Assembly (NCBI GenBank): GCA_038877255.1
Contig: JAVYWZ010000004.1
Location: 1-45,354 of the forward strand
DNA: 45,354 bases
Source of the DNA: Candidatus Micrarchaeaceae archaeon
GTDB taxonomy: Archaea; Micrarchaeota; Micrarchaeia; Micrarchaeales; CABMGC01
Reading direction: 5' to 3'
The notes under the pieces were generated by a model. That model was not told the origin of the DNA. It was given only the letters and a program-made list of their open reading frames with translations, and did no database searches. The translations under genes and the position numbers were made by a program. Shown in pieces: positions 40,198 to 42,967 of the stretch (position 1 is its first letter; each line of letters starts with the position of its first letter).

Positions 40198-40842
40198 ATG
40201 AGCCTTTTGCTGCTTTCACTTGCCGGCTTATTCAGTCTTACCTATTCATCAATACTCTCTCTTATTGCCAAATACGGCTATTATGCGCTCTTCGGACTAC
40301 TGGTGCTCGAAGCTGCTTCGCTGCCTGTGCCGAGCGAAGTAATATTGCCTGTGGCAGGCTATTTTATCTTCACAGGCGTGCTTAATCCTTTGTTGGCAAT
40401 TGCGGTTATTTTGTTTGGTGGTCTGTTAGGAATGGCTATAAACTATTACATAGCGTACTTCATAGGCAAGGACCTTGTTTACAAGCACCTTGCTCTGTTC
40501 CACATAAAGAAGGAATCGCTTGACGCCTTCGATTCATGGTTCAACAAAAACGGCTCCTTTGCTGTATTCGTAACCCGCATGATGCCTTTGGTGCGCGGCC
40601 TCATAAACTTTCCAGCAGGCTTTGCCTTGATGTCACAAAAGAAGTTTTACGCATACTCTATGTTAGGCACTGCCATATGGGACATATTCCTTATCACTTT
40701 CGGCTACTATCTGAGCAAGTACGCGCTCAGCATGCAGCACGCGTATGGCATGTTCGCAGTTCTAGGCATAGCTATAGGCTTGCTTGCTTTGCTGCTGTTC
40801 ATGATTTACAGATACGCGATGAAAAGGATAAAGAAAAAATAG
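40198..40842 (+). CDS. DedA family membrane protein
   Basis: LEAASLPVPSEVILP and RMMPLVRGLINFPAG motifs. Confidence 0.92.
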   Translation: MSLLLLSLAGLFSLTYSSILSLIAKYGYYALFGLLVLEAASLPVPSEVILPVAGYFIFTGVLNPLLAIAVILFGGLLGMAINYYIAYFIGKDLVYKHLALFHIKKESLDAFDSWFNKNGSFAVFVTRMMPLVRGLINFPAGFALMSQKKFYAYSMLGTAIWDIFLITFGYYLSKYALSMQHAYGMFAVLGIAIGLLALLLFMIYRYAMKRIKKK

Positions 40843-41163
40843 TTACTTCGCCGAAGAAGGCCCCAGCGTATAGTGCCTCACGACTTTTATTACCTGCTCT
40901 ATTGCTTTCTTTATCTCAGCATTGGTCTTCGCACCTGTGCAAATTATCTTTCCGTTCTTGAAGAGAAGCAGTGCCACCTTGGGCGTATGTATTTTGTAAA
41001 TTGCTCCAGGGAACTGCTCTGGCTCATAATCTACATCAGAAGAAGCCTTAGCTATTGCATAAAGATCAAGCTCAACCCCAAGGTCGGCGCTTGCTACAAT
41101 GTTTTCCACTTTGAAGTTAGGTTTCAAAACAGGCAATTTTCCTTCTTTTGCTTTTGCCATCAT
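40843..41163 (-). CDS. tbp: TATA-binding protein homologue containing only one TBP repeat (106 aa)
   Basis: ENIVAS, YEPEQFPG and LLFKNGKIICTGAK occur once, followed by a stop; SD-like AGGTG upstream. Confidence 0.9.
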   Translation of the reverse strand: MMAKAKEGKLPVLKPNFKVENIVASADLGVELDLYAIAKASSDVDYEPEQFPGAIYKIHTPKVALLLFKNGKIICTGAKTNAEIKKAIEQVIKVVRHYTLGPSSAK

Positions 41164-41235
41164 ACCACACCTTTTTAAATGGAACCGCAATTTATATATT
41201 TACTTCTTTATAAATTTTACGCCATAGTGATTCTT

Positions 41236-41523
41236 ATGGAGCGATCGCAAGGTTTATTTTCAGGCAGGAGCAGGCACCTTTCAAGGCACCATATGCCTTC
41301 TAAGCTAGGGATAAGCGAGATAGTAAAACAGTTCAACATAGGAGATAAAGTGGCAATAGTGCCAAAAAGCAATTTCAGGGACATACCGCATCCAAGGTAT
41401 AGGGGCAAGATAGGCACCGTAATAGGCAAGCGCGGCAGCGCATATGAGGTTGAGATTAATGTTTCTAAAACAACCAGACGCATGCTCGTCGTGCCTCAGA
41501 GGCATCTTGAAAAGGTAAGCTGA
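41236..41523 (+). CDS. rpl21e: 50S ribosomal protein L21e
   Basis: RSQG...F.IGDKV...PHPRYRGKIG.V.GKRG.AY...P.RHL pattern. Confidence 0.95.
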   Translation: MERSQGLFSGRSRHLSRHHMPSKLGISEIVKQFNIGDKVAIVPKSNFRDIPHPRYRGKIGTVIGKRGSAYEVEINVSKTTRRMLVVPQRHLEKVS

Positions 41524-41677
41524 ACGCTCAGTTTGGAGTAGGATATAGTAAACTACCCCTCCTAACAGTAGAGATAAAATGAAACAGTTAGTTTTCTTTA
41601 ACAATAAAATTCATCAACCGTCAACTTGACAGAACCAAAATGACAATATATATGATGTTTAGATTAGTTTACTGCGG

Positions 41678-42078
41678 GTGAACTGCCCCGCTCTTACAGA
41701 CTGGGCTTCCGCCACGCCCGCAACCTTGTGGCTTCTCGCTTCAATGGAAATGCTTGCTTTCACATGCGGAATACTTTTTATGTATTCGAGTATGCTACTT
41801 GCAGAGGTGTAATCCTCTTCGAGCGTCTCCAGAGACCTATGTGGTTTGTAAACCACTTTCCTTCAAGAAAGAGCCTTTGAAGCGCATCAGATCTTTGTTT
41901 TGATATTTGCTTTTATCAAATTTTATTTCATATACTTTTGCAGTTTTGCCTTTCCGCTTTGCCCTTGTTGCCTTGCCTTTTTCTCTTATCTTCTGTTCTT
42001 TTCTGCATTGGGCATATGCCAATCTATTTTACGCAATTCCTCTACACGCTTGCGCATGTGGTCTCCTTGCGAGGCGAT
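41678..42078 (-). mobile_element. tnpB: Copy D: degenerate tnpB element with frameshifted N-terminus fused to C-terminal tail and right end
   Basis: ATG at 42015: MPNAEKN.../IREKGKATRAKRKGKTAKVYEIKFDKSK.../FLEGKWFTN, then tail ...SIEARSHKVAGVAEAQSVRAGQFT and right end GAAGCCCAGTCTGTAAGAGCGGGGCAGTTCAC. Confidence 0.7.
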
Positions 42079-42118
42079 GTGATTAAAGCTGTTTGAAGAG
42101 TACAAAAGCAACAATACG

Positions 42119-42191
42119 TAGTCCCGGCCGGATTCGAACCGACGTAGCAGGCTCCAAAGGCCTGCGTCCTTGGCCACTAGACGACGGGACT
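42119..42191 (-). tRNA. tRNA-Gln(TTG)
   Basis: A1-U72 acceptor AGTCCCG/CGGGACT and anticodon arm CAGGC-CTTTGGA-GCCTG. Confidence 0.95.
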
Positions 42192-42244: not shown

Positions 42245-42967
42245 ATGACAGAAAAAATTTACCTTTATGATGCATATGCCAAAGAAGTGGATTCGCGCAT
42301 AGAAAGGATTATTGGCAATTCACTTGTTATTGACAAAACAATATTTTATCCTGGCGGAGGAGGCCAGCCTTTTGACACTGGCACCATGCTAATAAATGGC
42401 AATAACTATGACGTGCTTGAGACGAAAAAAGATGCCGGCAACATAGTGCATATTCTAAGTGGTGCGCCAGATGCAGAAGCAGGTGCAATGGTGCACTGCA
42501 AAATAGATTGGCAGAAACGCTATGCATATATGCGCCATCACACTGCGCTGCACATAATCGGCGGCGTAATAGCGAGCAAATACAACGCGCAGGTAATAGC
42601 TACTGGCGGTCAAATATTCTACGACAGGGCGCGCATGGACTTTGATATGCCTGAACTGAACCGCGAGCTGCTTGAAAAAATAATCTACGATGCGAATGCA
42701 ATTGTAAAAGAAGGCCACAAAGTATATGCAAGAGAGTTGCCTAGAGAAGAGGCAGCGAAGATACCTAATCTTGCAAGGACTGAGCCGGGCAGAAAGCTTG
42801 TTGAGAGCCTTGATTTTGTTCGTGTTGTGGAAATAGAAGGTTTAGACGTGCAGGCAGATGGTGGCACGCATGTAGCGAACACCAAGGAAGTAGGGGCAAT
42901 TTCGCTTGCTAAGTTTGAGAATAAGGGAAGCCACAGTAAGCGCATTGAAATAACGCTCAAAAATTAA
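42245..42967 (+). CDS. alaX: Alanyl-tRNA editing protein AlaX (AlaXp-M)
   Basis: TIFYPGGGGQPFD, RHHTALH and ADGGTHV motifs. Confidence 0.93.
   Translation: MTEKIYLYDAYAKEVDSRIERIIGNSLVIDKTIFYPGGGGQPFDTGTMLINGNNYDVLETKKDAGNIVHILSGAPDAEAGAMVHCKIDWQKRYAYMRHHTALHIIGGVIASKYNAQVIATGGQIFYDRARMDFDMPELNRELLEKIIYDANAIVKEGHKVYARELPREEAAKIPNLARTEPGRKLVESLDFVRVVEIEGLDVQADGGTHVANTKEVGAISLAKFENKGSHSKRIEITLKN

Follow-up and report, generated by a model that had tools for sequence, protein, structure and literature searches.

The TATA-binding protein (TBP) occurs universally in archaea and eukaryotes as a two-lobe protein. In the stretch of DNA analysed here (the window, 45,354 nucleotides, which is contig C4 of genome G000) the only TBP gene that could be recognised encodes one lobe. 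This raises the question of whether such a gene can provide the general TBP of its host and, if so, how a single lobe could do the work of two. An earlier note, made from the letters of the window, had offered three readings: a symmetric homodimeric TBP, a heterodimer partner or dominant-negative regulator, or a recent truncation. The features needed for the argument are the following.

40843-41163, minus strand: coding sequence of the one-repeat TBP (open reading frame and translation; Pfam PF00352; dN/dS 0.02-0.04 against genus orthologues)
40873-41118, minus strand: the single TBP repeat with Phe51, Phe68 and the stirrup motif YEPEQFPG (genome-wide HMM match, alignment of 47 sequences, solved TBPs, fold match)
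40198-40842, plus strand: DedA/VTT-domain membrane protein (Pfam PF09335), convergent neighbour of the TBP gene
41236-41523, plus strand: rpl21e, ribosomal protein L21e (Pfam PF01157), head-to-head with the TBP gene and marking the conserved tbp slot
41164-41235, strand not applicable: divergent spacer of 72 bp between tbp and rpl21e, with A/T-rich TATA-like stretches at 41172-41179, 41190-41202 and 41207-41219
41168-41171, minus strand: Shine-Dalgarno-like motif GGTG, 4 nt upstream of the first ATG of the TBP gene

The TBP gene comprises 106 codons plus a stop and begins ATG ATG GCA. Relatives begin with MAK, so translation may really start from the second ATG (41160). Motifs of the kind preceding the gene are common in the genome: GGTG showed a peak at position -9 from 651 crudely called gene starts (74 there) and AAGGTG was 3.9-fold enriched upstream of gene starts, although in both cases the rule used for picking starts favoured such motifs. 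TATA-like hexamers peaked genome-wide at -30 to -26 from gene starts, and the 72-bp spacer is presumed to be the promoter region of both tbp and rpl21e. The Pfam TBP profile PF00352 matched the protein once, at residues 16-97, with 103.6 bits and an E-value of 5e-30 (cut-off 22.9). Positions 1-84 of the 85 in the profile were covered, so the single repeat is complete. The stop codon of the gene (40843-40845) directly abuts that of the DedA/VTT gene (40840-42). Because of this junction, and because rpl21e follows after 72 bp on the other side, there is no space for a second repeat next to the gene, and no trace of one was detected there in any frame. The earlier note had described a 106-aa reading frame with a Shine-Dalgarno sequence, one complete and well-conserved repeat, a clean stop against the convergent dedA stop and no second half on either side; all of this was borne out.

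Beyond rpl21e, the approximately 600 bp up to a tRNA-Gln gene (41524-42117) gave no Rfam match at gathering score and held only small open reading frames (61 and 65 aa, minus strand) lacking Pfam matches. The next gene encodes an AlaX-like editing protein (tRNA_SAD), and its longest frame is overlapped at the 5' end by the tRNA-Gln gene itself (anticodon TTG, 42118-42191, minus strand). Because of this overlap the true start of the AlaX-like gene is probably the ATG at 42245.

Could the missing lobe, or an ordinary TBP, be encoded elsewhere? The earlier note had proposed to look for a full-length tbp in the rest of the genome. G000 amounts to 713,429 bp in 30 contigs and is 92.4% complete. A six-frame HMM search of all of it with PF00352 at E<=1 gave a single match, the window gene. 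Eight lobe queries were used for tblastn, among them the window protein, canonical N and C lobes, three B-type paralogues (see below) and L025 (a long-branch one-repeat unit whose placement is uncertain), and the window locus was the one accepted match. A weak tblastn match recurred on contig C30; it lies inside an open reading frame resembling pyruvate phosphate dikinase (PPDK) and was dismissed as chance. PF11858 (DUF3378), which is found beside PF00352 on some two-repeat TBPs in precomputed annotation, had no match in G000. No full-length tbp was thus found by the six-frame search or by tblastn. Four of the five other genomes of the genus likewise contained exactly one PF00352 match and the fifth, which is 83% complete, none. 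Exactly one match was also obtained in two members of the family assembled as single contigs (G022 and G127) and in one of three contigs (G008). The suggestion of a heterodimer partner or dominant-negative regulator found no support in these searches, as neither a partner nor a full-length TBP turned up in G000 or in the single-contig genomes G022 and G127. The partner factors are present: contig C9 encodes a normal TFB, whose 362 aa include a zinc ribbon and two cyclin repeats, and TFE is encoded in G000 as well.

The position of the gene is informative. In the window's family (f1), rpl21e stands head-to-head with the TBP gene at 22 of 24 loci of the type represented by the window gene (type A, see below), the other two being cut by contig ends. 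The same arrangement was seen at 13 of 14 A-type loci of the sister family f3. Of 19 one-repeat loci that belong to eleven other families, 16 showed it, and so did all five canonical two-repeat TBP loci that were examined (families f16, f20 and f32). Since the canonical tbp genes and the one-repeat gene lie beside rpl21e alike, the one-repeat gene occupies the slot of an ordinary tbp, and the window gene is the positional orthologue of tbp. At 20 A-type loci of family f1 the fetched flank contained a dedA homologue, presence being scored irrespective of position and orientation.

The earlier note had also proposed a search for single-repeat orthologues in the Micrarchaeota, and these proved to be widespread in the genus, the family and the class. 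The assignment to Micrarchaeota agrees with the source names of identical or clustered proteins ('Candidatus Micrarchaeia archaeon'), by which the window belongs to the class Micrarchaeia. TBP matches were obtained in 40 of 41 genomes of the order, and all but that of G023 are single repeats in short open frames. In a sample of the class, 239 of 251 genomes had a TBP match, and about 100-105 of the 251 (read off the table) had exactly one. Among the 150 matches listed, those from genomes with exactly one match lay in open frames of 92-182 aa in every case; a further 231 matches occurred in the class, and the statement on frame length applies to the matches listed. Ordinary two-repeat genes, with adjacent matches in frames of 189-261 aa, were seen in families f5, f10 and f14, and two-repeat genes also occur in f16, f20 and f32 (five genomes checked in these three).

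The sequence itself is under tight constraint. Compared with genus orthologues, dN was 0.05-0.08 and dS was saturated, giving a dN/dS of 0.02-0.04, and the gene is under strong purifying selection. An alignment of 47 one-repeat proteins contained 22 invariant columns, including F51, F68 and the stretch Y46-I55. By alignment, these correspond to the same residues in both lobes of the solved archaeal TBPs 2Z8U, 1MP9 and 1PCZ. We take F51 and F68 to be the phenylalanines that are inserted into DNA, and the acidic stirrup motif to be the contact site for TFB/TFIIB.

These data bear on the third reading, in which the gene is a product of recent truncation, a pseudogene remnant or an assembly artefact. 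Its one point of support lies in the reads. Among public sequencing runs, one DNA run (X1) and no RNA run was listed as holding the stretch. Run X1 yielded short Logan contigs with a depth of 3-6, which showed no differences to the window but left 40764-40910 and 41095-41131 uncovered, so that the 3' end of the TBP gene is not included. Against this, a gene of the same length recurs in many independent assemblies in the same rpl21e context and with a dedA homologue in the fetched flank, the dN/dS ratio is that of a constrained gene and no remnant of a second repeat exists in any frame. A truncation or artefact is extremely improbable, and this part of the earlier note did not survive.

A different possibility is that the gene is genuine but the lone lobe has an accessory or regulatory role, as in the case of halobacterial TbpA, while promoters are recognised otherwise, for instance by TFB alone or by a host-derived factor in what is likely to be a symbiont. 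It is in favour of such a role that all published lone-repeat TBPs, as far as they are covered by the accessible parts of PMC3597702, are accessory or of unknown function. However, full-length TBPs accompany the lone repeats in the published cases, whereas the searches of G000 gave none. Moreover, the window gene sits in the tbp slot beside rpl21e, retains the phenylalanine pair and the stirrup motif and is among the most constrained sequences measured here. We regard an accessory lone lobe as very unlikely. Real and conserved, the gene very probably provides the organism with its working TBP.

If one chain has to play the parts of both lobes, its sequence should favour neither. In solved archaeal TBPs, each of the two lobes has an identity of about 40% to the window protein, and the two lobes of 2Z8U scored nearly equally against it (74.6 and 75.5 bits). 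Identity to the lobes of two-repeat TBPs of Micrarchaeia was higher, at 50-63%. Profiles for the N lobe and the C lobe were built from 15 canonical two-repeat proteins, and the window protein reached 124.7 bits on the former and 125.4 bits on the latter. Canonical lobes differed by 12-33 bits between the two profiles, although those rows were also the training rows. Judged by its sequence, the protein appears lobe-neutral, which is what a chain playing both roles would be expected to look like.

Structure prediction is consistent with such a double role. The AF2 model of the monomer (pLDDT 81) shows the fold of a TBP lobe, with a five-stranded sheet and two helices. All 44 fold matches in the PDB at E<=0.001 were TBPs, with query-normalised TM-scores of 0.67-0.74. 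Residues 1-20 were poorly ordered in the monomer (pLDDT 59-63). Modelling of the dimer had been recommended in the earlier note, and the homodimer passed: two copies of the protein gave an ipSAE of 0.71 (0.70-0.72 over three runs), whereas the best of three controls scored 0.00. The mark applied to this score was reached by 20 of 30 proteins solved as one-chain pairs and by one of 23 solved as single chains. The homodimer runs had at least 79% of contacts in common, with a partner pLDDT of at least 85. In the modelled interface, residues 15-26 run antiparallel to themselves (22 facing 22) and are joined by residues 81-101, which include the C-terminal helix. This interface corresponds to the way in which the lobes of TBP structures are held together at the dyad by strands S1 and S1'. 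The homodimer score measures likeness and not binding and, because TBP saddles have already been solved, it may reflect the memory of the model for these.

The window protein is not the only kind of one-repeat TBP in its order. A lobe tree was calculated from 131 repeat units and 89 columns (quick IQ-TREE, SH-aLRT support only, unrooted, with many forks unresolved). In this tree the one-repeat proteins of the order grouped together with a support of 98. Within them a faster-evolving type, B, was distinguished with a support of 96; it comprised 27 rows from families f1 and f3 (L026, L028, L030, L032-L035, L037, L039, L041-L044, L046-L049, L051, L052, L054-L057, L060, L061, L064 and L065). The window protein belongs to the A-type group. 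A and B were present as separate genes in 12 of 25 genomes of f1 and in 15 of 15 genomes of f3 (14 of 14 without the unpublished G038). B-type proteins keep both phenylalanines, but none of the 27 B-type loci lies beside rpl21e, and in single-contig genomes the A and B genes are up to hundreds of kb apart. No B-type match was obtained in G000 (at its completeness of 92.4%) or in the four genus relatives that have a TBP match. The genomes with A only, including those of the window's genus, form one subclade of the A tree (SH-aLRT 94 and 85), a pattern compatible with B having been lost once. The pattern of sequences would thus fit a duplication in the order that gave rise to a dispersed paralogue B, followed by one loss that left the window's genus without it. 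An A/B heterodimer may have been the ancestral working form in this order, and A alone may not be sufficient.

Two further two-repeat proteins deserve mention. P0098, from a 2.4-Mb contig, is a two-repeat TBP whose lobes are sisters on a long branch next to the B-type proteins, although its placement is unsure. In G104, which possesses both A and B, a two-repeat TBP of canonical though diverged type was also seen (L143, G104:C77:1153-3695). This gene lies on a contig of 3.7 kb and is probably bin contamination from another archaeon; it was left out of the counts.

It might be argued from paralogue B that the window protein is one subunit of a TBP encoded by two genes, with a partner of type B or of more diverged sequence that either falls within the 8% of the genome missing from the assembly or has diverged beyond detection. 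The frequency of B in f1 and its constant presence in f3 speak for this, as does the incompleteness of G000. On the other hand, the B genes of relatives score E-values of 1e-21 to 1e-26 with the same HMM and would be seen. In addition, B is lacking in G000, in its four genus relatives with a match and in the single-contig genomes G022 and G127; the confinement of A-only genomes to one A-type subclade is what one loss of B would give; and a lone one-repeat gene is the usual state in the other families of the class. A partner that escaped detection is in our opinion unlikely.

How did the one-lobe state arise? The best reading is that the ancestor had two lobes and that one of them was secondarily lost. 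Primitive retention of a form from before the TBP duplication we rate as highly improbable at most, because in other Micrarchaeia the canonical N lobes and C lobes cluster with their counterparts from other archaea. The data gave no answer as to which lobe was kept: the solved TBPs disagree (the N lobe matches better for 1MP9 and the C lobe for 1PCZ, with 2Z8U a tie), the N and C profile scores are equal and the three monophyletic groups of the unrooted tree do not decide.

The change seems to have been reversed more than once. Several relatives possess two-repeat genes in which the sequence of one lobe is almost that of the other, and these lobes group with the one-repeat proteins. In P0002 and P0071 the repeats are 91% identical and the N and C lobes are sisters in the lobe tree. 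In G074 of family f7 (L142, G074:C30, plus strand 1204-1767) the repeats are 84% identical (74 of 88 residues), rpl21e adjoins the gene and the other sampled members of the family have one-repeat genes. On sequence grounds the two-repeat TBP of G074 looks like an independent re-duplication, and P0002 and P0071 look alike in this respect. Within the window's own family, G023 contains a two-repeat open frame (L014, G023:C39:9527-11423, minus strand 1486-1897) that is dedA-linked and cut by the contig end. Over about 100 nt its upstream partial repeat does not differ from the downstream repeat, and there is no start codon between them. This may be a very recent tandem duplication and fusion, or an assembly effect at the repeat. 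For comparison, the identity between repeats ranged from 46% to 91% (median 60%) in 124 two-repeat rows close to the query, a query-biased set with a few duplicate loci. Natural re-duplications, as read from these sequences, show that a TBP with two identical lobes should be viable.

On this basis we consider that the window gene probably encodes a symmetric homodimeric general TBP whose polarity is set by the contact of TFB with the BRE. Two identical chains of 106 aa would pair through the first beta-strand and the C-terminal helix, as in the model, and would rebuild the ten-stranded saddle that is normally made by two tandem repeats. The dimer would be exactly symmetric. With two phenylalanine pairs it would bind and bend an A/T-rich promoter element, and it would offer two identical acidic stirrups, on one of which TFB could dock. 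The BRE adjoins the TATA box, and its contact with TFB would then set the direction of transcription. Archaeal pre-initiation complexes are oriented by TFB-BRE contacts, as described in the available text of PMC4041446. Of the three readings in the earlier note, the homodimeric TBP is thus the one that computation favours, by virtue of the single TBP-domain gene, its positional orthology with tbp, the lobe-neutral sequence and the homodimer model.

A saddle without intrinsic direction invites the question of whether promoters are oriented. Genes were called crudely in G000 (658 open reading frames of at least 90 aa), and TATA-like words were counted upstream along with their reverse complements. 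TTTATA and TATAAA were nearly balanced, with 60 and 62 sequences holding the word between -60 and -9, and 45 and 47 occurrences between -50 and -16. Two control genomes with two-repeat TBPs, G161 and G087 (400 kb each), were equally unbiased (36/34 and 19/19), and the counts do not separate one-repeat from two-repeat cases. An EM motif found upstream (A-rich, then GC, then W-rich) was of low information and had no shuffle control; the asymmetry of GC-W6 (133 versus 142) did not hold. As a separate observation, the palindrome TTTAAA was favoured upstream in G161 and G087 (89-90 occurrences in about 350-400 genes each). In the 651 genes of G000, TATAAA and TTTATA (45-47) were commoner than TTTAAA (31), a comparison between genomes whose differing GC content was not controlled for.

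Taking the class as a whole, we lean towards the view that in much of the Micrarchaeia the sole general TBP is an obligate one-lobe homodimer, with direction coming wholly from TFB-BRE contacts, and that the lineage has shifted repeatedly among one-lobe genes, two dispersed one-lobe genes and re-duplicated two-lobe genes. If this is true, the moves between these forms would re-enact in nature the duplication-fusion step from which TBP is postulated to have arisen. To our knowledge, the descent of TBP from a homodimeric one-lobe ancestor has stood as an inference with no living example. A one-lobe gene that is the sole copy and lies in the tbp slot would make the ancestral-homodimer hypothesis directly testable with a natural protein, in respect of dimerisation, DNA bending, the docking of TFB on either stirrup and the way in which polarity is set. 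One-lobe, split and re-fused forms together would constitute a natural series for studying the evolution of asymmetry. There are also practical consequences. Some one-lobe genes are annotated as 'hypothetical protein' by pipelines, and completeness or marker schemes that expect a TBP of about 180 aa may mis-score them.

A literature search, with subscription journals outside its coverage, retrieved no publication in which the sole TBP of a member of the Micrarchaeota or DPANN has one repeat. In the accessible parts of two DPANN genome papers TBP is simply listed as present (PMC8407392; PMC8204110), and archaeal forms of TBP with a single lobe are mentioned without detail in the available text of Ravarani et al. 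(2020, PMC7221094). Closest to the window protein among the described cases is halobacterial TbpA, which according to the accessible sections of Brindefalk et al. (2013, PMC3597702) is monopartite, clusters with true TBP lobes, occurs beside full-length TBPs and is non-essential. As far as these sections go, TbpA resembles the window protein in having a single repeat and a sequence close to canonical lobes. It differs in that it coexists with a full-length TBP, whereas the window gene is the only TBP-domain gene found and lies in the tbp slot. The same sections, with Table 3, report monopartite TBP-domain proteins of about 91-97 aa from Thermococcales, e.g. a 96-aa protein of P. furiosus, that are diverged, form a cluster of their own and exist beside a normal TBP (PMC3597702). 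From what is given there, these too are stand-alone proteins with one TBP domain, but they are far from TBP in sequence, unlike the window protein with its identity of 50-63% to the lobes of two-repeat TBPs of Micrarchaeia and of about 40% to solved archaeal TBPs.

A named organism, Ca. Micrarchaeum acidiphilum ARMAN-2, is found in the sister family f3. Its protein EET90338.1 (104 aa, annotated as 'TATA-box binding family protein') corresponds in f3 to the window protein. The A-type gene of this family is the orthologue of the window gene in the same rpl21e slot, but the ARMAN-2 family keeps the dispersed one-repeat paralogue B whereas the window's genus has A only. With the canonical archaeal TBPs (2Z8U of M. 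jannaschii, 1MP9 of S. acidocaldarius, and 1PCZ, 1AIS and 1D3U of P. woesei) the window protein shares the repeat family and the fold and, by alignment, the phenylalanine pair and the stirrup motif, and the two-repeat tbp of related Micrarchaeia lies in the same slot beside rpl21e. What sets it apart is the absence of two tandem repeats in one polypeptide, by which a canonical TBP is defined. The canonical protein carries two repeats per chain and is pseudo-symmetric; the window protein carries one, bears the signature of neither the N nor the C lobe and would require an exactly symmetric saddle of two chains.
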